Below are positions 24,113-59,576 of a stretch of DNA of 64,000 nucleotides, piece after piece. The notes under the pieces were generated by a model. It ran no database searches and was not told the origin of the DNA. It saw nothing but the letters and a program-made list of their open reading frames with translations. The first letter of the stretch is position 1. Each line of letters opens with the position of its first letter. The position numbers and the translations under genes are program-made. Source of the stretch: Psammoneis japonica (taxonomy: Eukaryota); the NCBI GenBank assembly GCA_008632985.1, contig QPGO01000201.1, positions 1 to 64,000 on the forward strand. The letters are read 5' to 3'.

Positions 24113-24686
24113 NNNNNNNNNNNNNNNNNNNNNNNNNNNNNNNNNNNNNNNNNNNNNNNNNNNNNNNNNNNNNNNNNNNNNNNNNNNNNNNNNNNNNNNN
24201 NNNNNNNNNNNNNNNNNNNNNNNNNNNNNNNNNNNNNNNNNNNNNNNNNNNNNNNNNNNNNNNNNNNNNNNNNNNNNNNNNNNNNNNNNNNNNNNNNNNN
24301 NNNNNNNNNNNNNNNNNNNNNNNNNNNNNNNNNNNNNNNNNNNNNNNNNNNNNNNNNNNNNNNNNNNNNNNNNNNNNNNNNNNNNNNNNNNNNNNNNNNN
24401 NNNNNNNNNNNNNNNNNNNNNNNNNNNNNNNNNNNNNNNNNNNNNNNNNNNNNNNNNNNNNNNNNNNNNNNNNNNNNNNNNNNNNNNNNNNNNNNNNNNN
24501 NNNNNNNNNNNNNNNNNNNNNNNNNNNNNNNNNNNNNNNNNNNNNNNNNNNNNNNNNNNNNNNNNNNNNNNNNNNNNNNNNNNNNNNNNNNNNNNNNNNN
24601 NNNNNNNNNNNNNNNNNNNNNNNNNNNNNNNNNNNNNNNNNNNNNNNNNNNNNNNNNNNNNNNNNNNNNNNNNNNNNNNNNNNNNN
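24113..24686. other. Assembly gap (N run) inside the PIF1 helicase
   Basis: Run of N with helicase motifs on both sides. Confidence 0.99.
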
Positions 24687-25533
24687 GGCTCCATCTCTTC
24701 CAAAGTTTGTGTGGGTTGACTTCAGCAGAGACTGTGGCGGAGGATCATTTTTTCCCGACGACGACAGTTGCCGAGGTTGGGTGCCAATTCACCCTGTGAC
24801 TGCAGCCGTGTGCACTCAAAAGCAAGATGATGTGGGCTGTGATGAACACACTCACACTGTGTTGCCCTTGAAGCTTTGCTGGGCAATGACCATTTGGAAA
24901 GCTCAAGGCCAAACCATCAAGCCCCATTTTGTCATGGATTTGTCCAACCGCGAGAAGCAGCATGGTTTGACCTGCACTGCTTTTTCCCGTGCCCAACGTC
25001 TTTCAGATGTTGGGTTGGTCAATGGTGTCATGCAAGATTGACTTTGTAAGAAGGCGTGCAAGCACAAGAAAATGGACAAGCGTCTGCAGGAGAAGAGGCG
25101 TCTGGAAGCGCTGCTGCGAACGACCATCCAAGCTTTTCGACAACCGCTCTGTGCTGCAGATCAATCCAGTCTAGCTGTTTTGTCCTTCTGTCCTGCCACA
25201 TTCCTTGAAAACAACCAATCACCACCTTTGAGGGCAGGCAAACTCTGTGTGACTGAGATTCAGGTTGCAGCACGTCGAGTGGCACCCCCTTCCTTGGAGG
25301 CGCCACTCTCAGTCTCGCCGGGGAGCAACCCCTTGGCTCTCGTGGGCCGTCTTGCAGAAAAAAATTGCCAAGGTGCCACTGCAGTCAGCTGCCTTGGCAC
25401 AGTTGCTCACAATCATCAGAGACAAGAGCAACCTCGTCTGCCCTTTGTGTCGGGACTTTCCCAAAAGTGGCAGATTGTGGATTTTAAAATGAAGAATGCT
25501 CCTCACCCTTGGACCACTCCACACAACATTCAA

Positions 25534-25682
25534 TGTTGGCATCCACTTGAGTCACCCAGCAAGGTGTTGGCATCCACTTGAGTCACCCAGTGAGGTGCAG
25601 GTGTCCACTTGAGCCACCCAGCAAGGTGTTGGCATCCGCTTGAGCTGCCTCGTGCCTCATGTGATGTGGCACCCGCTTGAAC
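25534..25682 (+). repeat. 31-bp tandem repeat, about 4-5 degenerate units
   Basis: TGTTGGCATCCACTTGAGTCACCCAGCAAGG at 25534, with variants at 25565, 25596 and 25627 and a partial unit near 25667. Confidence 0.85.
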
Positions 25683-25686
25683 CGCC

Positions 25687-26887
25687 GACGCGTTCCAGCC
25701 CTGGGTGGGACTCTGTGTGACATTGGGCCCACAGAATTCTGCGTGCGAGCTCCGTAGCACAAGAATTTAATTGATGGGCACATTTGTCTTCAACATCAAA
25801 CAAATGGCCAAGTTTGTGGTGCAATTGTGCCTCTCACCACTCAACGTTTTTGCAAGTGCGCCTGCCCCATGCGATTCTTGAGACATTGCAGAATGGCGCT
25901 GCGACAAAAAATGTCAAAAGTTGTTGGATGGATCGCTCAATGAGACCTGTCGTGCTCGTGGAAATTGGGGTGTAATTCGGGGTGTAATTTGGGGGTGTGA
26001 AAACGCGCATCGCGCGAATTTACACACCAAAATTACACCCATTTTTTGCACGAGTGCGAGAGTGTGAAACTTGGCATCTGCAATTCTGCGAGCAATGATG
26101 TGTGCATTGAACACATGCTCCTGAAAAAATGTTGATGCTCAATCAGGAACAACGCCATGTGTCCATTTTTAATCAACTCATCTGTGCACAAGGTTGAACA
26201 TGCCATTGACGGCATCAAACCACCACGGCGTTTGGCGGCTCCGCTGCGACCTCACACATGTCAAAACACTGTTCTGACAAGCCCAGTCGATGTACAATTA
26301 CGTGATTGACATTGTGTGTCACTGCTGCATCCACATCCAAGGTGCCAGCAACCCCATGACGTGTTTTTCTTCTGAAAAGGTGTGGAGTTGCCATCATTTT
26401 GTTCTCCGTTGACTTCAATCTCATCATTTTTTGCCGTTCTTTCTTTCACAAACACATCACAACAGCTCCCCAGCAACAATTTTTCACATCTCTCATTGAC
26501 TGACATTCATTGTTGATTGTTGGTTGCCATTGTTGTTTGACAATTCTGATGTCATCATCTGCCGTCATGGACGATGATGAGTCTGTTTTCGCACGAAAAA
26601 TTGCAGGCTCGCAGAATTTTTTGCAGGAAAAAAATGCATGCCTCTGGTGGCCTGTTTGTTGGCTGCAATTTTTTTTGAGGGGTGTAAAAACGCGCGACGC
26701 GTGCATTTACACCCCTGATTGCACCCCTCCGCCATGAGTGCGACGGGTCTAAGTGCGCTGTAAAATGACACAAAATGTCAAAAAATCATGTGGAAATCTA
26801 CGTGCACGACATACGACGTGATTCAAAAAACTGTTGATGTCACAGTTCAGCAGTGCGAGGTCCCACCTGCTGGACCTGGGACACGTC
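25687..26887. mobile_element. MITE family A, copy 2, split by a nested TIR element
   Basis: Ends GACGCGTTCCAGCCCTGGGTGGGAC ... GTCCCACCTGCTGGACCTGGGACACGTC. Interior colinear with copy 1 on both sides of the insert. Flanks CGCC/CGGC. Confidence 0.85.
25944..26749. mobile_element. Non-autonomous TIR element B (PIF/Harbinger Tourist-like, TAA-type TSD) nested in MITE A copy 2
   Basis: TIRs GACCTGTCGTGCTCGTGG / CCATGAGTGCGACGGGTC. Flanks TGA (25941-43) and TAA (26750-52). Subterminal GGGGTGTAA/TTACACCC repeats at both ends. Confidence 0.75.
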
Positions 26888-27034
26888 CGGCCCCGTTTGA
26901 AGTGGTGTCAACTTGAGCTGCCCAGCATGATGTGACATTTTCCTGCAGAAACATGGACAAAGATTGGAGGAGAACAAGAAGTTGAGAAAACCAAAAAACA
27001 CATTGAATCAACAGATTCCGTCAAATGCAGTGGA

Positions 27035-27361
27035 GACAGGCTCCAGTCCCAGGTGGGACTCCATGTGACATTGGGCCCGCAGAATTCCACGTGCAAGCTC
27101 CACAGCAAATTTGCACTGCAATGAAAATGCAAATGATTGCCAACAGAAAAAGAGGCAACTTTATGAACACATCTCCTCCTTCATGCTTGGAGCATGAATG
27201 TTGAAAACAGAAAGCCTTCAGCTTCGCAAAACAGGGAGCATGAAACAATTTCGTAAAATGCAACATGCAGAAATGCACCTGCGCGACATGCGACGCAATC
27301 CAAAAAACTGTTGATGTCACAGTGCAGTGGCATGAGGTCCCACCAAGAGCTGGAGCGCGTC
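27035..27361. mobile_element. MITE family A, copy 3 (4-bp TSD TGGA)
   Basis: Ends GACAGGCTCCAGTCCCAGGTGGGAC ... GTCCCACCAAGAGCTGGAGCGCGTC. TGGA at 27031-34 and 27362-65. Ends shared with copy 1; middle differs. Confidence 0.85.
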
Positions 27362-28379
27362 TGGAGCAATTTGATTCACTCATTGAGAATGTGAGATTGA
27401 AGAAACACATTTCGGCTCAAGAGAACATTCTCGTTTGTTTTCATTGTGAGTCAGTTTTTGGGTTGACAACAGCAGGCCCAATGGCATCAACACAACATCC
27501 ACAATGCTCGTTTTCAGCGGTGATGGCCATTGTTGGAGGTGCTCCGTGTTGATGATGTTTGTGGTGGTGGTGGGAGAAATGCAAGAAATGGCCGTTTCCA
27601 CGTGCGCGCTGCTCGCCGCAATGCTGTGCAAGTGCCTGTGCTCCTGATGTGAGTGCCGGTGCTGCGCCCCAGACTGCGCTCTCGTGTGTTTTCTTTTTGC
27701 AGCATGCGCGCACTCTCTCTAAGACATTTTTCTGCTCCCATTGCCCAACCCTGTCCTGCGGACAACACCCACCTGAGAAGTTGCAAAACACTGTTCTGAA
27801 AAGTGCACTCGCTGTCCATCAGCCAAAATGGAAGATTTCTTCAGGCATTTAAAAGAACACAATTAGTCCAAAAGTCATGGTGCAATCAACATCACAGCTC
27901 TGCCTGCAAGGTGCTGGCATGGCCAGTTGCACGGCTGCATTGAACCCAAACATGCGTGACCAACTGCCACAGCCCTGCCCCGGCTGACTCACAGTTTTTA
28001 TCACAAACACAGTCCCACGTGCATTAAATTTGTGCCGTTGGAGTCAGCCCGCATGGCACGGCCGGATCTTCCAAAAAAAATTGAAAATGAAAAAATGGCG
28101 TTCGTCGTTTCATGATGATTTGTGAGTGCAGCATCAGGCAGAGTGGAGGTTGCGTTGTTCACACTGTGCCACATGCAAGCAGTCAAGATGTGCCTTGACA
28201 AATGCAGCACAATCTAAAGAGACCAAGTCGGCATTTCATTGTCTGTGCAGACGTTCCTTGGTTTTGCCGGTGAAAGCATGAGTGTGCTTGTCAAAAACTC
28301 TTTCACTCCAGCAACGGCAGCCTTGTTCGTCCTTGTTTAAAAAAAGTCGAGCAACGCCATCTGTCATCATGCTTGACCT

Positions 28380-31300
28380 TCAAGTCTGACATGGAACGAG
28401 TGCAGAGAACTTGCAGGCAACTACAGCAAGATTTCTCAAAACAATGAGATGAGCAAAATGACACGCGCTTGATTGGTGAGGACCGAAAATGCCATCCCAG
28501 TGCGGCCATGACTCCCAATTGGAAGCAAACCAACCACAGTGTGGACAATGACTCAGCTTGCAAGTCGCCACAACGGCCAATCCCTTGCACATGTTTGAGG
28601 AATTGTTGTGACACTTGAGGTCATCACAAGCTTTGTTCTCGATCGGACCGCACTTGCACAGTTTGCACATTCTCAAGCTGCCCTTGCCACCAACGGCCTT
28701 GGTGTCATTTGATTTGCCGACAGCTTGAGCAAATGCCTTGGCAGCAGCTCCGTCTTCACAAGCATGCCATTTGTGCAACAGCTTGGCTTCCTTGAGAGCC
28801 GCTTCTTCTTGCTTCAATCGAGCTTCCTCATGGACACGTTCAGCAGATTCCACTTTTGCATGACGAGCTTGCCGCTCCACTTTTCGGCGCGTTTGCTCCG
28901 CTTCTGCTTCCGCTGCCTCTGTTGACTTTTTCACTGATGCTTCAAGTTTTTCAATTTCATCCTCCAAAGCTTCCTTTCGAGCTGTTTTGATGTGATGCTT
29001 CATGGAACATTTGGCATCGCATTTACGTTGCGATGCAGGCAGATTCTGTGCCAACACATTCTGCAACAAATCCAACCCCGCCTTCATGCGAGTTGGAGGA
29101 TGCACAAGCTTGAGTGGAAGCAAGGTGCAAGGCTTGACGCTTTGAATTGCAGTGAGAAAGTTGGGGTCTTCTTGCAACGTCGGAGACATCGGACCAAACA
29201 ATGGTTTTGTTGAAGAAACGCCTGCACTGTGGTGAATGCCGAGCAACGTTGATGCGGCTCTTTCACCTGCTGCTGTCTCAATCTTCAGCTGACCACCTTC
29301 GCTGCTCCGTTCTTCTGGCACAAATGTCTCTGCAAACAGAGGTGTTGAAACGGCAGGAGCACCGGCATTCTTCTTGCTCTCATCATCGGCAGCACCGACT
29401 GGCTTTTTCGCTTTGAAAATCTCACTGAGAGATGCTTCTTTTGCTTTGCTGCGACTCTTGACAGTGGAGTTGGTCGCTTTAGATGCATGGTTGCGTCCAT
29501 TTGTCCTTTTCCAATCAGTCCAACTGCTGCGAATGGTGCATGCTTTCCTCAACAACGCCGTGACTTCCTCAACGTCGGCCAAAGAAAAGGCTGGCCCACC
29601 CGCAGTGGGTGCGCTGCTCCTCGTTGGATCATCAATGACTGAAGCAGCTGCTCTTCGTTTCGCATTGGCAAGTTGTGCCTTTGCATCAGTCAAATTTCTT
29701 TGTGCAGTTTCAAGACAATGCATTGTCTGGAAGACTTCCTGGGTGTGGACTGGTTCTTTGCCTTTGTTGTGTGGTGTCGGCCCACCCAAGATTTCATCAT
29801 GCTGGGCTTGAACAACTTCAGTTCGAATCCCCCACTCTTTGATGGCTCGTTTCTCATCTTCAAGCTGTTTGGAGTGCTGCAGCTGAATTTCCAATCTGCT
29901 TCTTTCTCCAAGCAGCCTTTGAATGTTGTGCTCAAGCTCAAGTGTGGCTGGCCCAAATTCGTTGTCAGCCCACACTTTTTCCTGCAAGTCTTGGAACGCA
30001 ATGACTCCTTGAGCAATGTCGCGAATGCAGGGCTGGAGGCGCTCCCTCAGGATGAACGCTCTTGTGTTGCCCATTGATCCTTCTCTGGGCATCACATCAA
30101 CTGTCTGCATGATGCACTTGGCGCAGACTCTGTGAAGTTCCTTTGAGCGTGTTGCTGCAAAGTCGGAAACTTCAAACTCAACACATCTTTTGCATGCCAT
30201 TCTTGTGCAGCGAGTGCGCGACAAGGTGGCATCCGATGTCAACCTCATCTTGCAGCATGCTGCCTGACAATGACAGTCCGTGCTGCCGCTGGACTGCTGC
30301 TGCGTGGTGTTCTTGCACAAGGCCAGGGAAACACCAAGGTCCAAGTCCGACAGGAGCTGGTCATTGCTTCTTTCATGTCGCACCATTTCATGTGAGACAG
30401 CTGCGGCATTCGGAGAAGGCATCTCATTGGCAGCCGCTTCTTCCTCTTTTGCTCTGCGTTCCCAAGCTTCCTCTTGGTTCTGAGCCATTTGACGGCGGGC
30501 CTCCTTTTCCTTGCATTCCCTCACAGCCCGTTGGCGATCATTTTTTTTCTTCTTGTGATGCCGGTCATTCCACTCAGACCTTTCCTCTGCTGACATGGGC
30601 AGAACGTTGGCCTCAGCCAGACTGACAATCTGCTTTTTGACAAAGCAGCCAGGAATGAGAAGGTCGGAGACAACCTGTTGAGTCACAGGGCAAGTGAGCT
30701 CGATTTCAGAACACGGTCTCGAGCAGCTCATGCTGCGATCATCTTCTTCTCCTTCCTGTGGTCCCTCACGTTCTTCTTGAACTCGCAAATCTTCTTCTTC
30801 GCGATGCAAATCAAAGTGTTGCTCAATCACTGTTTGACCACGCGCAATCCCGGAAGCACAAACTGCAGGGTCCACCATGACAAAATGCACCGTTGGGTCT
30901 TGGAACATGTCCATCTCGAACACTCTCAAGGGGGGTGCTCCAGCTCCAGTCGCGCCATCTGTGCTGTTTCGGAATGCTTCCCCATCGCACTCTTTGTCAT
31001 TGCCAGGCTTTGTCTTGGAGGAGGAGTCCAACTTTTCTGCTGCTTGTCTGTTGCCTTGAGAAGGGATCAAGGTTGCAGGTGGCTTGGTCATTGAATTGTG
31101 CCCGTTGGAATGGGTCGCTTTAGACAAGGATTTGTTCACGTTCGTGGGCAATTGGCTCTGGGTGTTTATGGCAGGTTGGTCATTTCCTTGAAGAGGGGTG
31201 AAGGTTGCAGGTGCTGCACTGTTCTCATTGGAATGGGGACCTGTTGAACTGCATTCATTCACCTCCGTGGACGCTTGGCTCTTGGGGTTTCTAGCTGCTT

Positions 31301-32222
31301 CATGACTGCCACTGGCAGCTGGTGCTTTGGAGCGAGGCTCTCGTGACGATGCTTTGGTGTCGTCTGCATCAGGATGAAAGGGGTTCACTTTTCTTCCGTC
31401 GATCCATCGGAGTGGACCACGGTTTCGTGAATGCTTTGCTGCATCCACAATGCCACTGCGGCGGGCCGTCGTCGCTGTTGTTTCAACCCATTCCTCAGCC
31501 ACTGCAATGGGAGTGGCTTCAAAACAGTTGTCCATGTGAGTCTGCCAAGTGTCCGCTGCATGCTTTGGAAATTTACACATCAACGCCAGTGCAAGGGCCG
31601 CAGTCGACTGGCACTTGACAATGCGTGCTGCCCTGGGCTGTGAACGGCTCTCGCCACAGCTGTCAATCACACACCACTTGTTTTGACTGCACCCAAAGCA
31701 CAGCACAGCATCGGATGCGTTTGCACTTCTAACAACAACAGCCACCCTCTCTTTGGGCACTTTCCCGAAATGCCCAATCCCAGTTCCACTTTGAACAAGT
31801 GGTCCGCGTTCGAGACCGTCAACTTCGTAGAAGAAATCACTCGGCCGCAGTTCTTCAACAGTCGATTGACCACGGCATGCCCACCCATGTCTTTTCACCC
31901 CCCAGGCAATCGCAAGATCAAGGAGGGCCGGGTTGATCAATGATTCAACAATGTCAAGCGTGACGTCTTGTGGATTGGAGTGAAGGAGATGAGAAGCTGC
32001 GATGGAGCAAAATGCCACAGACGATTCACTTCCTCCTTCAAAATCGCACCGGGACTTGGCTCCACAAAGCACTGTGGCACCGTGCGATTCAACGTTTTCA
32101 ATGACGGCATGGGTGAGTTTCGAATTGCTGCTTCTGCACCCTGTTCCAGATGTGTGGTGCTTTGCTCGAGCCACTCGTCTTCGCTGTCTCCCAGGTTGTG
32201 CAGTCTGCATGAAAGCCAGCAC
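28380..32222 (-). pseudogene. 1280-codon hypermutated ORF (coiled coils, Cys clusters, C-terminal RBR/IBR-like zinc module); possible TE passenger gene
   Basis: Uninterrupted frame with E/K/A-rich coiled coils and C-terminal MCKLCKCGPIENKACDDLKCH...CPHCGWFASNWESWPHWDG. Apparently only one Tyr; TpA nearly absent. Confidence 0.6.
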
Positions 32223-33018
32223 ATTGAGTCAGGACAAGTCATCCGTTCGAGTGTAAGATTGAAAATGAGGAGCACTGGAGATGCCATGATGGTTCTTGGC
32301 AGGAACTTGCTGCGCAGCCCGACTGCAGCGGCGAGGTTGCGAGAGAAGCATGGCGAAGCTGCTGTTTCGTTCTGATCATCATGATTTGCTCTGTGTGATG
32401 GTTCACACACAGGAGTGTAAATGTTGTGTGCTTTTGCGGCAGTTTATTTCAGAACTTGCGGGAACTAACATTAGCGAGCGTGGTGTGTCACTGAAGTTTT
32501 GGTGCATTCATTCGGCACCATAGTTTTGGTCCACGCCCATCACTGTGGCCACGCTGACCGACTGCTTCGATTGATCTTCTTTCGTGCTTGGTCGGCGGTA
32601 ACCTTACCGGTGTGTGTGACACTCATCTCCATCGCCCTCAATGCTGGAAAAAGACGTGCACGCAACGGAAATTCGAAATGTATACATGTGCGTTAAAAAT
32701 TATATGTAGAGTTTAATTGTATATTTAAAAATGTTCTTGGAACGCAGGAACTATCAAATTTATTGATCAGTGTTTCCGTTGACTTAACCTGCAATTTTCA
32801 ATTTGCCAATTGCATCTCCCAAAGAAGCCGGCCGGACCTCCCAAGCCGGGAGTGAGCCGGCCGGACTGACCCACGCCCCGCCAGCACCACAACGATCATG
32901 CCACTCCCAAGACGCATCATCAACGTTCACCGCCAATCGCCGATAAAATTATTGTGACAACACATCGATTCTTGTTGCACCTGTAATCAACACAACTTCT
33001 TCTCTTGATACCTACACC

Positions 33019-34649: not shown

Positions 34650-37600
34650 GTTAAGTGAAATGGAAGATAGAAAAGGAGAAATGAGAAGATAGAAGAGGAG
34701 AAATCAGTTCAAAGGAGCAGAGATTTGGCAAGATTGATTTGACAAGAAGGAGAAGAGAGAACAAGTGGAACAGATCACAATTTGTGGTGAAAGGGTGATT
34801 TGAAAAATGCAGGTTCGCATTTTGCAGTGCCATGGACTGAGAGTCAGCAACTTTGGCAACTGGATTGCACAACATGACATGCATTAACAGTTTGTGAAAA
34901 TGACCCACCTGAGAGCAAGAGACCATGTTCTTTGTCCAGGAGCATCAGCAAGAGAGAGAAGATTTTGTCATTTTCTTCACAAAGCTGATGTTGCTGGAGA
35001 AAACACTCATGGGCAAATGGGGGGTTGCAGTCATGAAGCAACTGTCATTGACATTGGTGACAAGCTCAGCAAGAATTCAGATTGTGTCAGCAGAAAGAAA
35101 ACAGTCACTCAGGTGCTGATGGTTGGTGCCAAAGGAGTTGAAGTCACAAAAGAAGCACACAAGCTCAGCTGGCACAAAATCAAACAACACAAGACATTTG
35201 GGAGAGTGCCCACACTGTGGGCCAACATGACTGTGGCAGCAAGCAGCACTGGTGGAGAAAGTGGCAGCCAGCTTTTAAGATTGAGAAATGGTTGAAAAAA
35301 GATCGCTCAGAACAGGAGGACATCACAGATGACTGTCAAGACTTCTGCGCATGGCTGGAGGAGTTGTGCGTGCTCTCCAGCACACTCAAGCAGCGGGAGA
35401 CATGTCAATGCCATGCTGACAAAGAGATCAAACTGGAGCACAAGTGCCGTGAACCATGGCACAAGTGCAGTGAGCCAGAGTTGAAAAATCAAGGACCAAA
35501 GTTAGAGAACTTTTGTCAAAAATGGCCAGAAGGACATGGGGCTGTGTGGTGAGACCATTGCTTCCCCCATGGATGGGTGCAAGACTTTCAAGAAGAAGTG
35601 CAGAGAGAAAGGGAGTGGAGGGTGGGTGGACCACCTGCAGGCTCCAGGTTCAAAAAAATCAATGAGAGCACAAAAAAACCCCTTGCCATGCAGGCCAGTG
35701 GGAGCAAGCACATGTTCTGGGCAAGTGTGAAAAAATGCTGTGAGAAGGGCCACAAAGCCAACAAGAATAACAGCAGCAAGTGTTGTGGCTGAAGAAGTCT
35801 GAGTGTGACTGCCACAAGTGCTGCAAATGGAGAGACTCAAGGCAAAAAATTGCTGGAGCAAGAGAAAGAAAAATGACCATGACAAAAGAAGTCAAACAAG
35901 GTGGCTTTGTGAATCTTTGAGGTTGAGGACAAGATTGAGGAGTGAGGCAAAATGGTGCCTCAATTTCTTTCTTGAATGGGTCAGATTGGAAGCACATTCT
36001 CAAGTCAAGAAGAACGACACTTCCAAAGTCAAGCTGGGGTGGTTGGTGTGTGGCAGCTCTTTTTCATGCTGTGCTTTGAAGAGAGTGCAGTTTTGGCGAG
36101 TGTGCATCTCATGCACTGTCATGGTGTGAATGGTGTGAAATGTCAGAAGAGAGTGCGCATGACAGAACAGGCTCAAAAATGTTCTTGACTCACTTGACAA
36201 GAAAGAAATTGACCATGATGACAACACACCATTGCCAGCCAGCTGCGCTTCTAGCTGCTGCTTGCTCCAACAATGGCAATGCAAAGGACAGCTGCAAGCT
36301 CATGTGTTTGTCACAACAAAATCCAAGTTGCAATGCCGGAGGTCATTGTTGAGAAACAGCACACACAGATTTGTCCAACACCTGTTCAACTGATGACAAG
36401 GAAGAAGTTTTGAACATTGAACTTCTTTGGTCATTGTCAATCAGATTCAGATGGCACGCCAGCTCTGTGGCACCTGATTTGCCAGGTGGAATGGGAAAAA
36501 ATGGCAAGACTCTGTCACCAGGATCTGGATGCATGGCTCACATCAAGTGCACACTGGAGGGCATGAGGAACCTTTGAGAAGCAAACAAAGAGATTGCACT
36601 TGCATGAACAAGCCAAATCTGGGAAACTGTGCAGTGATTGCAGAGATGTGCACTCAGCCAAATCGTTTTCCACCAAAAGACCTCATGTGAAGCAGGAGGA
36701 CTTCATTGAGCTCAAAGCAAAAGGCTGGATGACCAAGTGAAATGAGCTCAAGGCCAAGCTTCAAGATGAGGCCAAGGAAATGCAAGATGGGAGCACCATG
36801 CTGTTCAGCATTGCTCTGGCAATGTTCACGTCACACCAAAGTCTCTGCCAGCTGCAGTGTGTTCAGTCTTGATGGCAATGCTTGCAAAAGCCCAATGTTG
36901 CACAAGCAGATGATGTTTGTGACAACAACTCAGCTCTGGGCAATGTCCCCCCCCCCGATGTGTCATTTTCCTGGCAGGTGACAATGGCAAAGATGTGGAC
37001 AGCACTGGCTCACAAATTGAGGAAAATGGGAGAGCCCAAGACAACACAGATGACTCTGGTCTTGGGAGTGTGGTGATGGGTGATGATGACATGGGTTGAG
37101 ACACACAAGTGCAGGTCAGCTGAGTCAGGAGGTGCAATGTGGTGGAGCACATGGCAACGCAATGCCAGAGCACAAGTCAAAAGCAACAAACATGCACAAT
37201 CTCCAGTGCACAGGCTTTGGCCAAGCAAGAAGACAAACTTGAGAGGAGACTGATGTCGCTGAGGCCAAGGAAGTCAATGTGGTGCTTGGATGCACCAACC
37301 CATTGAAAATGACAGAGAGGCAATGTTGCACAGAAACAAAAAGACAAACAAGGGCAAAAAACTTGAAAAAAGAGTGCAAAACGAGTTTTTGACCAAGTGA
37401 CTGGATTGTAAAGAGAAAAGCAGAAAGACTTGAAAGAAGCTAAAAAGTGAGTGTGCTCTTGCCTGTCAAGGAGAACGTGTGCACAAAAGAAGAGAGACTG
37501 CATGCTGTTAGAAAGAAGCCAAGATGATGCTGAGTTTGTTGCAATGAGCTGTTTGCTCCAGCACCTGCAGCCCAAAAGTGCAGCACTGGGCAGTTTTGTT

Positions 37601-38470
37601 GCAGATGGTGACCAATGAGTTTTGGTTGGGGGTTTCTAAACACAAGTGTGGCTGGTGGCTCAGCTTGTGCTTGTTTGCTGCCATTTTGGAAAAGACATTG
37701 TGAGCACAAGGGCAAGGTGTGTGATGTTGCAGATGCTTGCTCCTGCTTGGAAAAGCACAGAGCAGGGATGACGGCCATGTTTGTCAAGAGATTCTTGTGG
37801 AAGCAGCAAAGAAGGGCAGAGCTCAGAGCTCAGCCCAGCAGGAGCAAGATGTGTCCTTCTTGTGCACTGTGCTGTCAAAACAAAGAGAGTGCATTGAAGA
37901 GGGTGGCATTGATGCACACCAGCAATGGGCCCACCTGTGGAAGGATGTGTTTGCCTTTGAGGAGCTTCTTGCTGCTGACTCTTGTGAATGACAAAGCAGT
38001 TTTTGCACAGTGCAAGCTGCACACCCAGAGGAAACCCAAGGATTCTGAGACACCAGGGGTGCCAGGAGAGATGTTTTGATGAAAGCAGGTGAGGGTCACA
38101 AGCCTCCTCATGGGTCAAAGTGGACGCATCACTTTGTGGTTGGAGACAGACCAACAATTTTGTGCGTGTGCTGTGTTGAGGGGGTGTCGGGCACAGATGA
38201 CACATTGTTTGCTCAATCTGACAAAGCCATGTTGAAAGTGCTGAACAGACAGTTGGCGCATTTGAATGTTGCTTTCACATGATGAAGTCAAGGACACCAC
38301 AGGAATGGCTCGGGTCCATTTTTGCACATGTTTGATGGCTCCTGCCTCTGATCAAGTGGAAGTGGGCGGCACACAAAAAACAACCACAAGAGCACTCCAA
38401 GTCATTTTGTGCCTTTGGATGGAATGTTGTTGATGAGCATCATTGTTTTTGGCAGCGAACAAACTAGTTG
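34650..38470. other. TpA- and CpG-depleted relic of unidentified coding-like or repetitive DNA
   Basis: About 8 TpA in ~3.6 kb by hand count. Purine-skewed plus strand with broken Tyr-free ORFs. No family recognised. Confidence 0.55.
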
Positions 38471-38584
38471 ATCAGCCAAGCATGCGTTTAGAAATTTTTT
38501 TGTCGTTGTTGTGAGAGTCGGTGAGATGGATGTTACTGCGGTGCCGCAAACATCATTCGTGACCGCGCCCCGCGGTGACTGCGA

Positions 38585-52580: not shown

Positions 52581-53490
52581 TCCTCGTTTGCTTTTATCTT
52601 TCCGGTTTCGCTTAGAAGGGTTTGCAACTAGTGGATTGTAAGGCGATTCGTTGCGAATAAACAAAACGATCGTGCGAACAGGTTCAAGGTTGAACGCAAA
52701 GAACAAGTGGCGGGCTTCGCTTCCGTAAGTGAAGCATGACAGCGCTGACGTGGATTAACTGTTTGCTACGTAAATGATGTTGAACATGGAAAGGTATTGT
52801 TCCTTCTTGCGCGACAATTCAATATCCGGCAGTTTGTCCGTCGCCCATGATGTAGGGCGTAGGGCAGGCTGCGATAGCATGCCATTATCATACCATACAA
52901 GTACCGGTAGCTAATGATAGCTCTACCGGTGGAGAGTAGAATGCACATGTTGTCTAGTAAAAAACGCTTAAGTTAGATACTCGGTAGAGAGTACTTCTAA
53001 GATAGCACACGACTTCATACCACTATACGTGAAAATTCAAATCAAAGTTTTTAAATTACAACGTTACCTTCCGTTCTCTCTGGAGTCAATCACCTTGAAC
53101 GGCACTTGGCGAATGGTGCACATCGCACAAAATGCATTACACTAGTTGGTATAAAAATAAAATGACGTGAAATGTTACTTCAGTCGATCGAATAGAGTGA
53201 GTAGGGAGCTTATTTGGTGTAACAGTATCATCATAGTTGTAGATCAAAATTGAACTGCCTGAGACTGTAATTGCTATTCGTAGGTCAGACGCACGTTTGT
53301 CGCAAACAGACTTGTCAAATGAATCATGGCGCTCTACTATCGTTTCTTATATTCATGTTATTGAGGTGTAGGCAAATTCGTTCGTTGTAGCGCAGAGTGA
53401 TTATTTTGGCTCGTGTATTTGATGCGGTTGTTGTCGTAGCGCTGAATCACTTTTCAGAGTATGGTCGAGATTAGACATTTCACCACCTGA

Positions 53491-54459
53491 TTAGAACCAC
53501 TCTTGCTCACTTCGTATATTGATTGCAAGATATCCTTGTGAGGTGCGAATGATACGCATGGAATCATCCAAATAGAGAATTTCAAACTGGCCAAACGGTG
53601 CGCTCAAAGGACCTTTCCATTCCACAGGCTTGGTTTCCAATATTCCAACCGGTAGTCCGTCATTGCGAATAGCATCCATCATGGCATTGCCACTTTCACG
53701 AATAGCATCAAACATAGAATTTCCTGTACTAGTAGTACTCTCTGCAGTTTTCGTGTTGGAGGACGTTTCCTCGTCTGCCTTTCCCACCAAATTGAGTCCA
53801 ACCAATTTGAGATTCACCTTGGTGGGATCTTCGGGAGTCGACACTCCTTCTGTACAAACCTTTTGAAGCACTCGAGACTTGTCTGTACCGCTAAGGGGGA
53901 AACTCGCTGCCCAATCAGGACGACGCCATTCAATCACATTGTTAATCTGCGGCGGATTGCATTCTTGTCCAATGCGTCCCAACTTGGCGGACGCAAGAGG
54001 TCCACCAAAGTCAAGAGACGTGATATCAGGTGCATCTGTGTAAACAAGAGTCCACTTTCCTTCCAGAGTCGGACCCGATGGTTCCTTTGGTACCGTTTCG
54101 TAGTATGCGGACGCTGGCTCTTCAGTAGTCATGTATGGAGACAATTCCTTGACGAGTTTCTTGACACGGTCTCGATCATCAGCTGACGCTTCGAAACCCC
54201 GCTTGGTCGAGTCAGCAATGTCTAGAATCTCTTGCTTCAGACGAGCGGCTTGAGGGTCTACGTCGTGGACCGGAAGAGCAACGTGTTCTTCTTCCTGATC
54301 TTCGCTGGTGTCACTCGGGAATTCATTTGTATACCGTAAACGAGTGCCTGAAGCAGGAGAAAAAGAGAAACTCGATGAAACCAAGGGAGCGGGAAGAACA
54401 GCAAACCCAGCTGTTGACAGAGGCAGAGAAAGGTACAAGAAACTGGAAATGATCTTCAT
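53491..54459 (-). CDS. PAP/fibrillin family plastid lipid-associated protein
   Basis: Bipartite presequence (STAG-FAV), LKQEIL...TKRGF, LEGKWTLVYT, GQFEILYLDDSMRIIRT. Confidence 0.92.
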   Translation of the reverse strand: MKIISSFLYLSLPLSTAGFAVLPAPLVSSSFSFSPASGTRLRYTNEFPSDTSEDQEEEHVALPVHDVDPQAARLKQEILDIADSTKRGFEASADDRDRVKKLVKELSPYMTTEEPASAYYETVPKEPSGPTLEGKWTLVYTDAPDITSLDFGGPLASAKLGRIGQECNPPQINNVIEWRRPDWAASFPLSGTDKSRVLQKVCTEGVSTPEDPTKVNLKLVGLNLVGKADEETSSNTKTAESTTSTGNSMFDAIRESGNAMMDAIRNDGLPVGILETKPVEWKGPLSAPFGQFEILYLDDSMRIIRTSQGYLAINIRSEQEWF

Positions 54460-57400
54460 AGTGCTAGTAGCAATGCATCAAGACGATGGAGGATGGATAG
54501 AGAAGTGAGAATGCTAAAAAGAGCCCCAATGCCATGCAGAACGTGTCATCGGTGCGAACACCTCACTGCTGCCTGCAGAAAATCAATCTTCGAAAGATTT
54601 CCCGCCATTTTTTGACACCTGCCACGTCAGCAGTCATTACAACATCGCGGCTGCACTTAGACATAAATTCTATTGCCCTCCAAATGTCTTTGAAACAACG
54701 TAACTCTGGATTTGTCTCCGCCGCTGTCAAACCTGCCAACAAGATCACAGCAGTGTCAACCATGAGCTTCCCTCTCAAAATGCATTGCAACGACAGCTTC
54801 ATGTGCATTTGATGCTTTTGATCATCACTTGGAAAAAAGTTGTTTGCACTTCGCCCTGCCAAACACACAGCAGCCACAGAGGGCAAACAGCTTGTGATGT
54901 TGAGTCGAGTTGATGGCTCTGACAATGGATCAATGTGAGCACGTGAAAAGATCTTGCACAGACAGGCCCCAATGCAATGTGGCTTGAGCATCAATTTTGC
55001 AGAATCAGTGGAGAGAGTGAGGAGCGAGGTGTGGATGACGATGGCGGGAGACCGCACCTGGCAGAGAGTCTCTGCACCTCCATGCTGCCCAGCTGAGGTG
55101 CAAAACGTCATTCCATGGAAATCAGACAATGCACGGTGGAGGACAAGAGAAAACTGCTGACAATCATCAAACCAAAACCTCTTTTTCTCACTTGCTGCTC
55201 CTGCCATCTGTGTGGTTTCTTGCTCAGCAAAAAAATGACAAGATGACGCAGCTGCAGCTGGCTCCTGGAGGTGCCAGACAAACCAGCTCCAGCTGGAAAC
55301 CCACAGAGTTGAGATCCCCACCCAGACAGAGTGCAATGGCAGTCAGCTGGAAAAGAAGCTTGCCACAGCTCCATGCTCCATTCCTTGTGGGGCTCAGCTG
55401 TTGTGCCCGCTGTGTGCAGCGTTTTTCCTTTTCTCAAGCAAAGGGACTCAGACAAGCCCATGACTCATTTGGAAAGGACAGTCTGTGCTCTGAAGCTTGT
55501 GAGGTTGTCTTGCCACAGCTCTGTGCAAGTGAGGCAAGCCCCCTGCAGTGTGTGGCAGCTTGGCTCCAACAAGTTGGTGAGTCAAATGGCCCTGTGTGAC
55601 ATGAGCAGCACCTTGCCCGCAATCTGCTCTCTCAGAGCTTTTTTTTGCCCATTTGATGATCTTTGTTGCCCAACAACAAATGCAAAGAGGAGCTTCTCAT
55701 GTTTTTTGCTGTGAAATGTCCTCGCAAGAAGATTGCCATGGGTGGACAATTGAAGCTCTCTTGGTCGCTGATGGGGGAAACAGAAAGAGGTGCAGCGTGT
55801 TGCCGCCATGAAGAGAAAGAAATGTGAATCCTTTGGTGCTTGAATCAAGGGATGGTTGAGGGGTTTTGACATGTCAAAAAAGCTGGAGGCACCGCTGTTG
55901 CTCAGGTGATGGTTGGGAGAGGAGAGTGCGTCATTGTCAAGGCCAAAATGGAAAAGAAAAGAAAAGAAGAACAACAGGGGTGCCTTTGAAAATGTCAGGG
56001 AAGAGCACGCTGGTTGTTGCTGTTGTCAGACATCCAACCAGGACAGAGCATTTGCAAGAGGGGTGTGCCGTTGTTGTTGGCAGATGTCAGATGGGAGGGC
56101 AGCAAGCTTGTGAGGTGTGCAGCGCGGAAAAAAGGACAGATTTGGCAGAAACAGAGCAAAACAACTGGGAGAGAGCTTGCAAATGGAAGGAATGCACAGG
56201 TGACTTAAATTGAGCAAAAAAGATTCAATTGGTTGTGACTTGAAAACTGTCAAGAAACAAAATTGACATCCACGTAAATTGAAGATCTGTGGAAATCATC
56301 AGCACAAATGTGAAAATTCTTTTAATTGTTGATGAGCAATGCTCTGTGGTTGAGCATGGAAACATGTTGCAGATGTTTGGCAAATTTTTGCCAAGGTGTG
56401 CCAGTGGCACCTGACCATTGGTCCACAAAGAACATGGCTGAAGGTGCATTTTCAAAGCACCGCCTGTTCAGCTGAGCACACAAGAAACTTCTTCATGACA
56501 GCTGCTTTGCAAGTGCACAGATTTTTCACATTTTGTTGGCTGTTTTTTGGAGTTGATTTGAAAAACAAGGTCAGCTCCTCCTGCGGCTGGTGTGCTGCAG
56601 CAGATTTTAGAGGACAAGACACTTGGGTCATTTTGGACAAATCACTTGTGTGCTGCAAGCAAGTGCCTCTGAAGCAGGAGAAAAAGAGCAACTCAATGAA
56701 GCCAAAGGAGCAGGAAGAACAGCAAACCCAGTTGTTGACAGAGGCAGAGAAAGGTGATTGAAACTGGAAATGATCTTCATGGTGCCAGCAGCACAACAGC
56801 CGATGTCACATTGTGTCATTGGTGTGAACAGCTCACTCATTTGAAAGATTCCCCCCACCATTTTTTGACACACCTGCCACATCAGCAGTCATTGCAATGT
56901 TGCACACCTGAACTTAGACACTGGCCCCACTGTCCCAATGTCTTTGACACAAATGACGCAATTTGTCTCCGCCCCTGTCAGACACATGCTGGCAGAACAC
57001 CGCTGCCACCAACCACAAGCTTTCCTTGCCAAACACATTGCAGCAAGAGCTGTTTTTGTTTCAAATGCAAATGCCACAACCTCCCTGTGCCACAGCGACC
57101 AATTGCTGTGGCTTTGTTGCTTTTGATCTTCTGCAAAAAATGAAGAACAACAGTGGCTGGCAAGTCCATCCGAGGCACTGGGTCAAGCAGCTCTTGCTGC
57201 TGGCAGATCGGCGCCAGCATGTGAAAGGATGACAGACATGTTGGTGCCAGCACAAAATGCCTTGCATGATGCTGATTGTGTGGACTCAATGGAGAGCTGC
57301 TCTTTGTGGAGTTTTGAGGAGAGGAAATCTCCAAAAGCCCAAGAAGGGAGCCAGAAACAAGAAGACCGACACCGAAAAGCCCCCCCCCCCCCCCCCCCAC

Positions 57401-58320
57401 CTTTGCATGGCCTGACCAAGATGCAAAATGTTGCTCAAAGAAAAGTGCACACTGCACAGTGCTGGAGGACAAAAGGAAACTGCCGGCACTCTTTGAAAAA
57501 AAACGACAAACCATTTTTCTCTGTGCAAGAGAAGAGCTGCACACCAGCCCTTCTTGGTGCAGTGCTGCACAGGATGGCTCAATGCAAAATGGTGGTTTGT
57601 TGACCAGCTAGACATGCCAGTCAACAAGCTCCAGCTTTGAGCTAAAAAAACCCAGATCTGTTGGGCAGAGCATCCTTGGAGGAACATCGCCTCTCTGGAC
57701 TCTTCTGGCATCACAACTTCTTCGGAGCTGTGCCCACTTGTTGCTGCCTGAGAGTCAACAAAGTGGTGTGCTGGTGCATGCCTTCAACATGACTCATCAC
57801 AGCTGCCTGACAGCATTGAAATTCTGTGATGTGCAGGAAAATCTCACATGGAGGCACACAGCTCAAAAGAGATGCTTGTCCCCACTCAGCAAGAGATGAG
57901 ATGGCTTGCCATCACAGCCAGGCGCAGGGGTGACGGCAACGAGGAATTGTTGGCATGCTGCAACTCTGTTTGTTCCATCCCTTGTGGGGTCCTTTCATCA
58001 ATGACAGCCCTGCCATGTTTCTTCTCTTGAGGAAAGCAACTCAGACAAATCCATGGCTGGTTTGGAAAGAGGACCTTTTGCACTCCAAAGCTTGCACACT
58101 GCAGTCATCTTGCCACAGCTATCTGTGCAAGACACTGCACACTGTGGTGTGTAGTGGCTTGATTCCAAGAAGTCAAGCCAAACAGCTTTTTATTGTGAGC
58201 AACATCTTGTCCAATTGTCTTGCAAAACAGACGACATTCTGCTTTTGGCCTTCTTCTCATGTTTTTCCCTTTTGTGGATCTTTGTTGCCCAATGACAAGT
58301 CCAAGAAGGGTATGACGACG
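54320..58320. repeat. Degenerate tandem segmental duplication (offset ~2.3 kb), including a dead copy of the fibrillin 5' end at ~56640-56780
   Basis: 54328-54472 aligns with 56647-56793; 54543-54662 with 56813-56920; ~55135 with ~57460; ~55658 with ~58277. The copy translates MKIISSFNHLSLPLSTTGFAVLPAPLAS. Confidence 0.85.
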
Positions 58321-58634
58321 CTGCAGACTCGCATTTGACACTTGATCTCTACAGCTCACCAACAATGCACTATGAACAACCACATTGATTTCTACGAGAA
58401 TAAACAATAGAGTCCATCTCAAGGACCACCAGCGTCACAGCCTTTGCTTGAACACTCGGACAGCAAAGCCAGCCGACGCTCTTGAATTCTTAGGCACAGG
58501 AACCGGTCAAAGCTACAACAGAAGCACAGTGGCTAGCATGATTCTATGCCTGGCTCCTCGTAGCTAGAGATGCAACTGTAAATGTCAATAAGAAGACGGA
58601 ACATGCGAACTATAATCCATTACTCCCAGGATTA

Positions 58635-59501
58635 TCACCTAGCTCCATCATCAGTTCCAAGAGACAGCATACCATGAGCATATTCTGGATGCAGTTCAAC
58701 GATACTGCCCGTCATGAGCGCGGATGCTTCTGACAAGAGAAAGCAAATGGTCGTTGCCACATCTTGCGGTCGTAAAATTCGCCCCAGCGGCACCGTTTCA
58801 TCGGCCTCTTGTAGCCAATTAGAATTGAGTTTGGACTGCAAACTGTTTTCATTCTCGGTAAAACACCACCCCATGTTGATACCATTGACGCGTATGCCAA
58901 AAGGCGCCAACTCTGCCGCGTTATTCTTGGTTAGACAAACCAGTGCAGCCTTGCTTGCCGAATATGCCATGACAAACGGTGCGCCACCATGAGCCGCCAC
59001 GCTACAAACATTGACAATTGCTCCCTTGACATTTGCCTCCTTCATGTGTTTTGCAGCAGCTTGGGTCATCAGAAACGGGGCTCGTACATTGACTGCCATT
59101 TGAAAATCGAACTCGTTTGCACTTGTCGTTTCAAGCGTACCGCGTCCTGTCGTTGCGGCGGCATTTACCACGCCGGTAATGGGACCAATGTGTTTTACCG
59201 CGAAAGCCGCCTTTTCAATAACCGAGGAGGCTTGATCCGATTGACTCAAATCTGCTTCTATCCAAAAAGAAGAAAACGTTTCAGAGGATAATTCACTACA
59301 GGCTGCTTCGCCTTTTTCTTGTGATCGAGAAACCAAAACAACCGCAGCGGCACCGAGCTCTTTCAGAAGCCGAGCCACTTGCAATCCCAAACCCTGAGTA
59401 CCACCCGTGATTACAAATATACGACCCGTGACACTTAGAGAAGGCTGTGAGAGGGGAGGGTTCAAGGCGGAACTGCCCGTTTTAGAAGCAAGGGACGCCA
59501 T
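58635..59501 (-). CDS. Short-chain dehydrogenase/reductase
   Basis: ITGGTQGLG, VNAAA, NVCS, YSASK, GIRVNGI, PLGR, MTGSIV. Confidence 0.95.
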   Translation of the reverse strand: MASLASKTGSSALNPPLSQPSLSVTGRIFVITGGTQGLGLQVARLLKELGAAAVVLVSRSQEKGEAACSELSSETFSSFWIEADLSQSDQASSVIEKAAFAVKHIGPITGVVNAAATTGRGTLETTSANEFDFQMAVNVRAPFLMTQAAAKHMKEANVKGAIVNVCSVAAHGGAPFVMAYSASKAALVCLTKNNAAELAPFGIRVNGINMGWCFTENENSLQSKLNSNWLQEADETVPLGRILRPQDVATTICFLLSEASALMTGSIVELHPEYAHGMLSLGTDDGAR

Positions 59502-59568
59502 GGCGTTGCGACATTCGGCGATTCCCGCATGGCGCGAGAATCCGCAAAGATTTTTTGATTGTAGCCAG

Positions 59569-59576
59569 TGACGTCA
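59569..59576. promoter_or_regulatory. TGACGTCA palindrome in the divergent SDR/PanK promoter
   Basis: Exact 8-mer in a ~260-bp divergent intergenic region. Confidence 0.35.

Follow-up and report, generated by a model that had tools for sequence, protein, structure and literature searches.

In Neurospora and other fungi, RIP converts C to T mainly at CpA, creates TpA and mutates both members of a duplication; it is associated with cytosine methylation, and its leakage into adjacent DNA is known. ADAR-type A-to-I hyperediting acts on viral and retroelement RNA, and RNA editing of this kind reaches DNA only via reverse transcription. A preference of ADAR for a 5' U is mentioned in the Discussion of a 2026 preprint on Bigelowiella natans (Mettrop et al., bioRxiv 10.64898/2026.01.13.699255), which is also the only published description of a TA-erasing process that we found; a search of the literature by title or abstract recovered no description of TA-specific hypermutation in diatoms. 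The preprint describes hypermutation at TpA in the integrated DNA of NCLDVs and virophages and, in mutation-accumulation lines, A:T>G:C changes at TpA only in a single-copy, transcriptionally silent viral insert. Methylation of TEs has been described in diatoms (PMC9998398), and transposon-mediated tandem direct duplications in maize (PMC3744419).

Here we describe a locus in a 64,000-nucleotide stretch of DNA (the window) in which the start of a working plastid fibrillin gene is accompanied by a second, mutated copy. We recognised the following features:

53491..54459, minus strand: intact PAP/fibrillin gene of 322 codons (open reading frame; Pfam PF04755, E 5e-13; relatives; composition)
54303..54459, minus strand: copy A, coding part, codons 1 to ~52, the unmutated state of the duplicated stretch (alignments)
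54460..54703, minus strand: copy A, 5'UTR/promoter, duplicated and unmutated (composition and alignment)
54704..55691, no strand: copy A, upstream spacer X_A, mutated, adjoining the working gene (composition and alignment)
55692..56619, no strand: insert Y between the copies, TA-poor (composition)
55990..56370, no strand: core of Y, member of a dispersed multi-copy repeat family (contig depth)
56620..56793, minus strand: copy B, dead copy of codons 1 to ~52 (alignment, frame and composition)
56794..56955, minus strand: copy B, copy of the promoter/5'UTR (composition and alignment)
56956..58310, no strand: copy B, upstream spacer X_B (alignment and composition)
58311..58634, minus strand: unmutated flank, 3' side of the neighbouring gene, starting at the first base past the duplication
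58635..59573, minus strand: short-chain dehydrogenase (SDR) gene (Pfam adh_short_C2, E 9e-47)

The process at this locus shares with that of B. natans, as the preprint describes it, A:T>G:C transitions restricted to TpA, whose product (TpG or CpA) varies with the strand, a confinement to regions whose neighbouring DNA mutates at the normal rate, and a long-term signature of low TpA and high CpA plus TpG. B. natans is a chlorarachniophyte (Rhizaria), whereas the host here is a diatom-like stramenopile. According to the same description, the rate in B. natans was measured in lines and the affected regions still have a large number of TpA, whereas the process here was deduced from a paralogue pair and has reached saturation (3.6 kb with 10 remaining TA). 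Again unlike B. natans as described there, the loss of TA is coupled here with a near-complete loss of CpG, and the mutated DNA includes a host gene fragment and native spacer, with an edge of at most ~40 bp at an active promoter. The target at this locus is not foreign (viral or TE) DNA: copy B is a fragment of the host fibrillin gene with its promoter, and only the core of Y is a dispersed repeat.

The fibrillin gene represents the intact state of the duplicated stretch. Its PF04755 match spans residues 73–311 of the 322-residue protein, which carries a presequence of the diatom signal/transit type, and the composition of the gene is normal (TA o/e 0.49, CG 0.90). We found 317 relatives of the protein, with diatom proteins among the names of many, and an end-to-end alignment with 9 diatom-type relatives was conserved along the full length with the frame intact. 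The N-termini of the relatives have the same presequence layout as copy A, including the Gly-Phe step. None of the relatives found could serve as a nucleotide-level outgroup for the locus, the best protein being only 55% identical. At the column of Tyr43, the N-terminal protein alignment of 7 relatives contained Tyr (2), Phe (2), His (2) and Met (1), which polarises codon 43 only weakly.

Copy A (54303–55691) and copy B (56620–58310) were homologous in five blocks, which reached 86–96% identity and 76–248 bits in purine/pyrimidine code, while none of 5 shuffles exceeded 64 bits. The gene-start pair showed 85% identity over 155 bp by BLASTN (E 1e-44), and 96% over 152 bp in purine/pyrimidine code (248 bits; best shuffle 56–64, n=5); the likeness of the two copies is far above chance. 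Both have the same orientation, lie ~2.3 kb apart and are co-linear through the coding part, the promoter and ~1 kb of spacer. The initial annotation of this DNA had noted a duplicated gene end. The duplication stands, and the end is the 5' end, that is, codons 1 to ~52 of the minus-strand gene plus its promoter; homology within the ranges proposed there for alignment was also found, though it is far longer than was noted. Neither BLASTN nor purine/pyrimidine-coded BLASTN detected further copies in the window, where the leftover BLASTN pairs were at shuffle level or of purine-rich low complexity, and no duplicate in TA-normal DNA was available within the window as a control.

The two copies are in very different states. 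In copy A, 4 out of 4 TA starting in 54320–54459 are present, plus the TA at the ATG (54459), and the 5'UTR/promoter contains 9 TA (o/e 0.51; the final one at 54701) and 10 CG; over the ~400 bp of 54303–54703, all 14 TA and 14 CG are retained. The coding part of copy B has no TA and no CG; owing to a 2-bp insertion it is out of frame beyond ~codon 37, and it reaches a stop after 50 codons. The promoter/5'UTR of copy B retains 1 TA and 1 CG and carries deletions relative to copy A.

We counted the mutation spectrum where copy A is intact, comparing 54320–54703 with copy B. Only 1 out of 11 aligned TA was retained in copy B (5 became TG, 4 CA and 1 CT) and none of the 12 aligned CG (4 became TG and 8 CA, with no strand bias, p 0.39), against 195 out of 275 for the other 14 dinucleotides (p 5e-5 for TA and 7e-7 for CG). 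CA and TG were retained at 22 out of 26 and 19 out of 22 sites, respectively, and none turned into TA. In a 153-bp core, where copy A has 7 TA and 4 CG, copy B has lost every one of them, while the other A/T sites differed at 7 out of 72 and the other C/G sites at 3 out of 59 positions (Fisher p 1e-6 and 6e-5, respectively). Half of the bases in these TA sites were changed (7 out of 14, one per TA), against transitions at 3 of the 72 other A/T sites (p 6e-5). Both TA products occur in copy B, as expected for either strand, and TG and CA are near parity in the mutated spacers (111/105 in X_A and 146/144 in X_B).

These counts bear out the substitutions listed in the initial annotation, whose quoted strings were all found in place. 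In particular, between 54328–54344 and 56647–56663 we confirmed two TA>TG, one TA>CA, one CG>TG and one CG>CA, and found a further A>G, outside TA (54340, AAC>AGC), that was missing from that list; between 54457–54472 and 56778–56793 there are three TA changes (TA>TG, TA>CA and TA>CA), and CATTACA (54634–54640) corresponds to CATTGCA (56888–56894). The alignment suggested there, comparing TA with other A/T sites, showed that TA had changed far more often (7 out of 7 versus 7 out of 72 in the core).

The locus can also be compared with other known systems. As in RIP, repeated DNA has undergone dense transitions that depend on the dinucleotide and affect both strands, and a copy is killed; unlike in RIP, TpA is lost and CA persists (22 out of 26) instead of undergoing C>T, and one member of the duplication is untouched over 400 bp (copy A, 54303–54703) instead of both members being mutated. 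The change of CG to TG or CA at 12 out of 12 aligned sites, together with a CG o/e of 0.2–0.3 across the domain, resembles the CpG decay of methylated transposons, but such decay leaves the loss of TA, the stronger and sharper signal, unexplained. The A>G changes with a 5' T(U) neighbour are similar to those of ADAR, and the A>G changes of copy B outside TA (n=3, a hint only) all lie at ApA, the second-best ADAR context. The route through an RNA copy does not fit, since native spacer beside its own promoter was rewritten in place.

The comparison of the two spacers dates the mutations. In the three blocks that are TA-free in copies A and B alike, 19 out of 64 aligned YR steps had TG opposite CA; in the block where copy A is intact, it was 0 out of 30 (p 0.002). 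A TG opposite a CA corresponds to one transition per copy from a TA or CG ancestor, and thus many hits post-date the duplication: both spacer copies were mutated independently, after they had been duplicated. Discordant TG/CA pairs amounted to 19 out of 58 (33%), versus ~16% expected from the TA plus CG share of intact copy A, an excess that points to extra turnover or some misalignment. The polarity runs from the gene-like to the TA-free state, on account of the truncated and frameshifted state of copy B, its likeness in composition to the whole of its domain and the TG/CA discordance (19 out of 64), which uphold the direction from functional gene to mutated copy read by the initial annotation. 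Of the two mutated spacer copies, no more than one can be new, so native DNA was rewritten in place.

The TA-free domain extends over 54704–58310 (3607 bp) and contains 10 TA versus ~237 expected. X_A has 0 TA versus 60 expected (and 16 CG versus 64), insert Y, of 0.93 kb, 4 versus 69, and X_B 5 versus 86, 3 of these 5 lying in the final 200 bp. Five segments tiling the domain had a CG o/e of 0.00–0.29, and the TA o/e was 0.00–0.09 inside the domain segments, versus 0.51 and 0.70 in the flanks. The edges are sharp. The left one falls within ~40 bp, between the last intact TA (54701) and the first TG/CA discordance (~54738), and lies 245 bp upstream of the fibrillin ATG; the right one falls between 58310 and 58311, 58310 being the final duplicated base. 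The right flank has a TA at 58311, a CG at 58316 and a TA o/e of 0.70 over 58311–58610, and the stop codon of the SDR gene is 325 bp from the edge.

All 34 TA-free gaps of at least 250 bp in the window were located in four such domains, and none in gene-bearing stretches. The other domain edges have named host genes or long open frames ~100–650 bp away: UCH, sulfatase and SDR are the named edge genes, and long open frames without a name adjoin 18091, 32254 and 34885. A 1282-codon frame reached a best protein atlas score of 0.79, which is below the useful range. In run X2, a transcript-like contig ends at 54483, in the 5'UTR/promoter of copy A (a hint only), and the contigs of that run leave the TA-free domain uncovered, which is no evidence of silence.

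We consider it fairly probable that the locus arose by a duplication followed by in-place hypermutation of a probably silent domain. A segment of ~1.4 kb, with the first ~52 fibrillin codons, the promoter and the native upstream spacer, was duplicated in direct orientation, with the 0.93-kb repeat-bearing insert at the junction of the two copies. Afterwards, all DNA between a point 245 bp upstream of the fibrillin ATG and the final duplicated base underwent transition hypermutation: 5'-TA-3' became TG or CA (A:T to G:C, on either strand), as did CG, until both dinucleotides were almost gone. The process acts on DNA in place and would be directed to a domain of the chromosome, most probably one of silent, methylated chromatin that is bounded by the two flanking transcription units and for which the repeat, the duplication or both served as the seed; neither sequence likeness nor TE identity as such would be the target. 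We infer silent chromatin as the address from the distribution of the mutations: positional targeting would leave the dead fragment and both spacers saturated and the same 400 bp of the active gene untouched. The chemistry would be adenine deamination for the TA loss (A to inosine, read as G) and deamination of 5-methylcytosine for the CG loss. The layout duplicate-element-duplicate, with a repeat-bearing insert exactly at the junction, is like that of the tandem direct duplications described in maize, a likeness of layout only, as Y has no demonstrable terminal inverted repeats, target-site duplication or transposase.

A homology-sensing, RIP-like trigger acting on the duplicated 1.4 kb, with leakage between the linked copies and the gene-proximal part of copy A spared by chance or protection, seems unlikely to us. 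It predicts a right edge at the end of the duplication, and this edge is exactly there (58310/58311), whereas the chromatin model needs the neighbouring transcript to end at that point; the mutation of both spacer copies after duplication also agrees with it, and DNMT4 enzymes, which are relatives of fungal RID, are encoded by diatoms, as described in PMC9998398. Against it, the 400 bp of copy A are intact with all their TA and CG, synonymous and non-coding sites included, while their partner lost 10 out of 11 TA and 12 out of 12 CG. Moreover, in B. natans the signature falls on a single-copy, transcriptionally silent NCLDV region, where repetition is not needed, according to the preprint (10.64898/2026.01.13.699255). 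The suggestion of the initial annotation that ordinary host DNA is hit once duplicated can therefore be followed in part: DNA of host origin was mutated, but the untouched duplicated 400 bp of copy A show that duplication is insufficient. The mutated domain also covers the unduplicated insert Y, whose multi-copy repeat leaves duplication unseparated from proximity to a repeat or TE. All DNA of the domain may in fact exist in two or more copies: the flanks of the Y core are single-copy only at a likeness of at least 80%, past which hypermutated copies diverge, so this locus cannot show unique DNA being mutated. Position in a silenced domain, rather than duplication alone, fits best as the trigger.

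Capture of copy B as cargo by a Helitron- or Pack-type transposon, and its mutation as part of a recognised TE, is another quite unlikely account. Helitrons are known capturers of gene fragments; a Helitron-type protein (Helitron_like_N, E 1e-21) was found in another TA-free domain of the window, and the multi-copy core of Y lies directly left of copy B. The summed contig depth of this core was ~660–670 in 56010–56357 versus ~60 elsewhere, with up to 8 other contigs, 80–90% alike, over one position and continuing into unlike sequence (copy numbers come from the contigs of one run, which may be the assembly's own data). Insert Y had no partner in the rest of the window and no homology to the fibrillin gene body (score 53, inside the shuffle range with mean 51 and maximum 70). 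A pair of 22 nt with 82% identity (55973–55994 and 56447–56468) brackets the multi-copy core; we did not accept it as terminal inverted repeats, as it is no better than 17 other inverted pairs listed and other copies of the Y family stop short of it. Capture is opposed by the geometry of co-linear copies 2.3 kb apart in the same orientation, with B ending exactly at the unique flank, which indicates a local tandem-type duplication rather than a capture with subsequent transposition. At a likeness of at least 80%, the run X1 contigs contained no third copy of either the gene start or the spacer. The domain has 14 ORFs, none of which reached the Pfam family cut-off (two gave sub-threshold, chance-like matches), Rfam gave no matches, and each of the six frames has 21–35 stops. 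Finally, the spacer of copy A, in its native position, is mutated too.

The initial annotation had left open whether the coding copy escaped or was kept intact by selection, and the former is favoured: the ~400 bp of copy A escaped the process and were not rescued. Equal targeting of both copies, with the hits in copy A purged by purifying selection on an essential gene, would agree with the functional-looking gene to which copy A belongs, with its 322-codon frame conserved in 9 diatom-type relatives. We regard it as very improbable, since synonymous and most non-coding sites are beyond the reach of selection. The changes of copy B at 54331 (TAT>TAC) and 54337 (TTA>TTG) are synonymous in the frame of copy A and absent from it, so that these sites had synonymous escape routes which copy B actually took, and in the non-coding 244 bp of copy A all 9 TA and 10 CG are intact at a normal o/e. 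Across the fibrillin CDS, 21 out of 31 TA could be destroyed synonymously, yet its TA o/e of 0.49 is that of other normal DNA, and the edge at 54701–54738 is abrupt rather than graded by constraint.

An assembly artefact, or a convergence in composition of unrelated sequences with no directed mutation, can practically be dismissed, as the homology has an E of 1e-44, the differences are concentrated on 2 out of 16 dinucleotides, and run X1 contigs match 53400–56155 and 56135–57398 with 2 differences in each, although this run is possibly the assembly's own data and its agreement would then not be independent.

The locus is a before-and-after record of a rare, locally aimed process of DNA mutation. 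TA-erasing hypermutation has mostly been documented in dead transposons, which give no access to the sequence before mutation; at this locus that sequence survives 2.3 kb away as a working gene, so that spectrum, polarity and saturation can be read directly. Host-derived DNA is as susceptible as TE DNA. The in-place rewriting of native DNA speaks against a route in which an RNA copy is edited and then reverse-transcribed, and the sparing of identical sequence inside an active gene argues for a positional address and against homology alone. The locus also makes the question of the trigger testable. Tentatively, a chromatin-addressed DNA mutator, probably an adenine deaminase beside cytosine methylation, might rewrite every TpA inside silenced domains permanently and in place, host gene fragments and native spacer included, stopping within ~40 bp of an active promoter; to turn previously normal intergenic DNA into such a domain, a repeat insertion or a small duplication nearby would then be enough. 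Because the erasure of TA removes TAA and TAG and makes no stop from a sense codon, dead genes in such domains can keep very long open frames, a practical point for genome annotation.

The whole window belongs to the nuclear genome of a diatom-like alga, and the locus studied here comprises a PAP/fibrillin gene, a duplication of its 5' part and a stretch almost devoid of TA dinucleotides.

Features of the fibrillin locus
53491–54459, minus strand: PAP/fibrillin gene, 322-codon open frame (PF04755, E 5e-13)
54303–55691: copy A, fibrillin codons 1 to ~52 with the 5'UTR/promoter (244 bp) and the spacer upstream of it (~1 kb)
55692–56619: insert Y, 928 bp, between copies A and B
56620–58310: copy B
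58635–59573: short-chain dehydrogenase gene, its stop codon 325 bp from the right edge of the TA-free domain

The fibrillin protein had 317 relatives at E<=0.001 (best identity 55%), many of them with diatom names, and it aligned end to end with 9 of them, including the presequence, whose Gly-Phe step was common to several. A read run guessed to be DNA (X2) provided a single 978-base contig (53506–54483, depth 300, no differences). Besides nearly the whole fibrillin CDS it took in the 24 bases preceding the ATG, and X2 covered nothing further. This contig looks like a transcript, which would put the fibrillin transcription start near 54483.

The initial annotation had described a duplicated gene end from three pairs of short strings. 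All three pairs are in place and belong to a genuine repeat, although the end concerned is the 5' end of the gene (codons 1 to ~52, promoter). A sequence similarity search within the window aligned a core block of 153 bp (54320–54472) with 56639–56793 (85% identity, 155 bp, E 1e-44). Because the differences between A and B are mostly transitions, recoding into purines and pyrimidines raised the identity of this pair to 96% (248 bits vs 56–64 bits for the best of five shuffles); it also exposed four further co-linear blocks (86–89% identity, 76–168 bits). Core and blocks together therefore extend the repeat over 54303–55691 and 56620–58310. Copy B has the order and orientation of copy A, and a 2-bp insertion shifts its frame, with a stop after 50 codons. 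Transversion divergence between the spacer blocks was ~7–9%, thus the duplication is not recent. We also observed an exact 14-nt repeat at 55693–55706, one base into Y, and at 58253–58266, with 57 bp of copy B left to its end, in homologous DNA that otherwise shows just ~75% identity; it may be a template-switch/microhomology trace of the duplication, or chance in T-rich DNA. The copy B spacer carries a ~20-C run (57380–57399) without counterpart in copy A, at which contigs of the DNA read run X1 were interrupted (57398 to 57496).

In the core, all TA (7/7) and all CG (4/4) of copy A were lost in copy B by one transition each, while among the other sites 7 of 72 A/T positions differed, by 3 transitions and 4 transversions, as did 3 of 59 C/G positions (Fisher p 1e-6 and 6e-5). 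One change at a non-TA site, A>G at 54340, was absent from the initial list.

Fate in copy B of the dinucleotides of copy A (54320–54703, where copy A is still normal; only dinucleotides aligned without gaps)
TA: 11 of A's 14 aligned; 1 kept in B; 5 TG, 4 CA, 1 CT
CG: 12 of A's 14 aligned; 0 kept in B; 4 TG, 8 CA
Other 14 kinds: 275 aligned; 195 kept in B (47–87% per kind)

The loss of TA and CG was significant in this interval (p 5e-5 and 7e-7), and many losses among the other 14 kinds were neighbours of a changed TA or CG. By these counts TA was clearly likelier to change than other A/T, and the proposed TA specificity stands. Only three A>G/T>C changes in the core fell outside TA (54326, 54340, 54380); on the strand that carries the altered A, its 5' neighbour is also A in all three, which hints at a secondary ApA preference (n=3). 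Ten TA survive in the domain (56206, 56275, 56323, 56608, 56915, 57609, 57643, 58120, 58152 and 58191), five of them within TTA, and the TA of CTTAGAC is kept in both copies (54658 in A, 56915 in B). Such survival may reflect a poorer target context or back-mutation.

The closest relative is just 55% identical, so there is no nucleotide-level outgroup; the direction from gene-like to TA-free, as first proposed, is fixed by three other lines of evidence. First, B is the frameshifted, truncated member of the pair. Second, B resembles its entire neighbourhood in composition, whereas A resembles the remainder of the fibrillin gene and every other genic stretch of the window. Third, in three blocks where both copies are TA-free, TG stood opposite CA at 19 of 64 aligned pyrimidine-purine steps, against none of the 30 such steps of the core block (p 0.002). 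Starting from either TG or CA this discordance takes two adjacent transitions, and from a TA or CG ancestor one per copy; therefore the duplication took place while the spacer still contained TA and CG, and its two copies were rewritten independently afterwards. As at most one spacer copy is new, native DNA was mutated in situ, which argues against a route through an edited RNA copy that was then reverse-transcribed. Of the TG/CA pairs 33% were discordant, vs ~16% predicted from how much of A's intact part is TA or CG; an old domain with ongoing TG-TA-CA turnover, or some misalignment, could account for the excess.

The domain spans 54704–58310 (3607 bp), with 10 TA observed vs ~237 expected and a CG o/e of 0.0–0.3. 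Its left edge is abrupt: TA occurs at 54638, 54658, 54664, 54671 and 54701, and the next 1505 bp have none. This last TA and the first TG/CA discordance, near 54738, therefore place the edge ~245–280 bp upstream of the fibrillin ATG. In the spacer of copy B, 3 of the 5 surviving TA lie in the final 200 bp. The right edge, between 58310 and 58311, coincides exactly with the end of the duplicated DNA, as a homology-sensing, RIP-like trigger would have it; such a trigger is nevertheless unlikely, since the duplicated 400 bp of copy A were immune (14/14 TA and 14/14 CG intact). All 34 TA-free gaps of at least 250 bp in the whole window fell in four domains, and none in gene-bearing stretches; thus ordinary intergenic DNA is unaffected.

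TA-free domains of the window (approximate limits)
1289–6347
18091–32254
34885–38465
54701–58120, at the fibrillin locus

Named host genes (UCH, sulfatase) or long open frames lie ~100–650 bp from the other domain edges, the frames beside 18091, 32254 and 34885 having no name. At the fibrillin locus, the spacer turned into a target only once the rearrangement had occurred.

A frame of 1282 codons without stops (28383–32228, minus strand; 20–70 stops in the other five frames) lies within a TA-free domain. Its product has 0.1% Tyr, 3.8% Cys and 3.7% His, and matched no Pfam family (best U-box, E 0.038), nor usably any entry of the protein atlas. It looks like a hypermutated gene, still open because TA erasure deletes TAA/TAG and makes no stop from a sense codon. 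Frames with Helitron_like_N (E 1e-21) and DUF6570 (E 1e-5) at 20663–22415 (plus strand), in domain 18091–32254, were the sole recognisable TE proteins among 14 long frames tested in the three domains away from the fibrillin locus. The CG o/e was ~0.4–0.8 in 18000–32300 vs 0.1–0.3 in 1000–6400, 34800–38500 and 54704–58310, all equally TA-free; therefore TA and CG loss look separable or of different speed. The largest domain includes a 574-N assembly gap (24113–24686).

Duplication or silencing had been suggested as a possible trigger, and the case for duplication alone would fall if copy B lay inside a TE. No TE protein was found around it, but B abuts a repeat, so the duplication-alone argument is not clean. 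Insert Y had no partner within the window, and resemblance to the fibrillin gene body was rejected (score 53 vs shuffle mean 51, maximum 70). In run X1, which contains 92% of the words sampled from the stretch and may be the assembly's own data, contigs matched 53400–56155, 56135–57398 and 57496–58600 with 2, 2 and 3 differences. Copies A and B had baseline depth (~50–60), and 56010–56357 reached a summed depth of ~660–670; up to 8 other contigs, 80–90% alike, covered one position of the Y core and continued into unlike sequence. The Y core is therefore a dispersed multi-copy repeat. Capture of copy B as transposon cargo is a little less plausible still than homology sensing. None of 14 ORFs in the domain reached a Pfam cut-off. 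Each of the six frames had 21–35 stops, Rfam gave no matches, and no convincing pair of terminal inverted repeats was found. In its co-linearity with A, shared orientation, 2.3-kb spacing and end at the unique flank, copy B has the arrangement of a local, tandem-type duplication whose junction holds an insert. Transposon-mediated tandem direct duplications in maize are reported to be laid out in this way (PMC3744419).

Of the two explanations first offered for the intact coding copy, escape holds and selection alone does not. In the fibrillin CDS, a synonymous transition would suffice to remove 21 of 31 TA, and TA o/e is nonetheless 0.49, as elsewhere. The B changes at 54331 (TAT>TAC) and 54337 (TTA>TTG) are silent in A's frame, yet absent from A, and A's 244 non-coding bases retain 9 TA (o/e 0.51) and 10 CG. 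With synonymous and non-coding TA and CG intact, it is very improbable that copy A was targeted too and kept by purifying selection; evidently, the process never got to its duplicated 400 bp. An artefact without any directed mutation is hardly credible.

On balance we favour, with some reserve, a position-addressed process acting on a silenced, probably methylated domain. The repeat, the duplication or both would have seeded such a domain, and the two flanking transcription units would bound it; TA would be lost when adenine in 5'-TA-3' is deaminated, whichever strand it lies on, and CG through 5mC deamination. We infer the deamination chemistry and the chromatin address; the remainder is read directly from the bases. 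The precedent is TpA hypermutation in Bigelowiella natans: a 2026 preprint (10.64898/2026.01.13.699255) describes a transcriptionally silent viral insert, present as a single copy, in which the reported de novo mutations were without exception A:T>G:C changes at TpA, and proposes an ADAT2-like deaminase. This was the sole description of TA-specific hypermutation that we found, and a full-text literature search returned none in diatoms. The fibrillin locus adds a clean before/after pair of the mutation process, proof that host-derived and native DNA is mutated in place, and a sharp domain edge beside a promoter.
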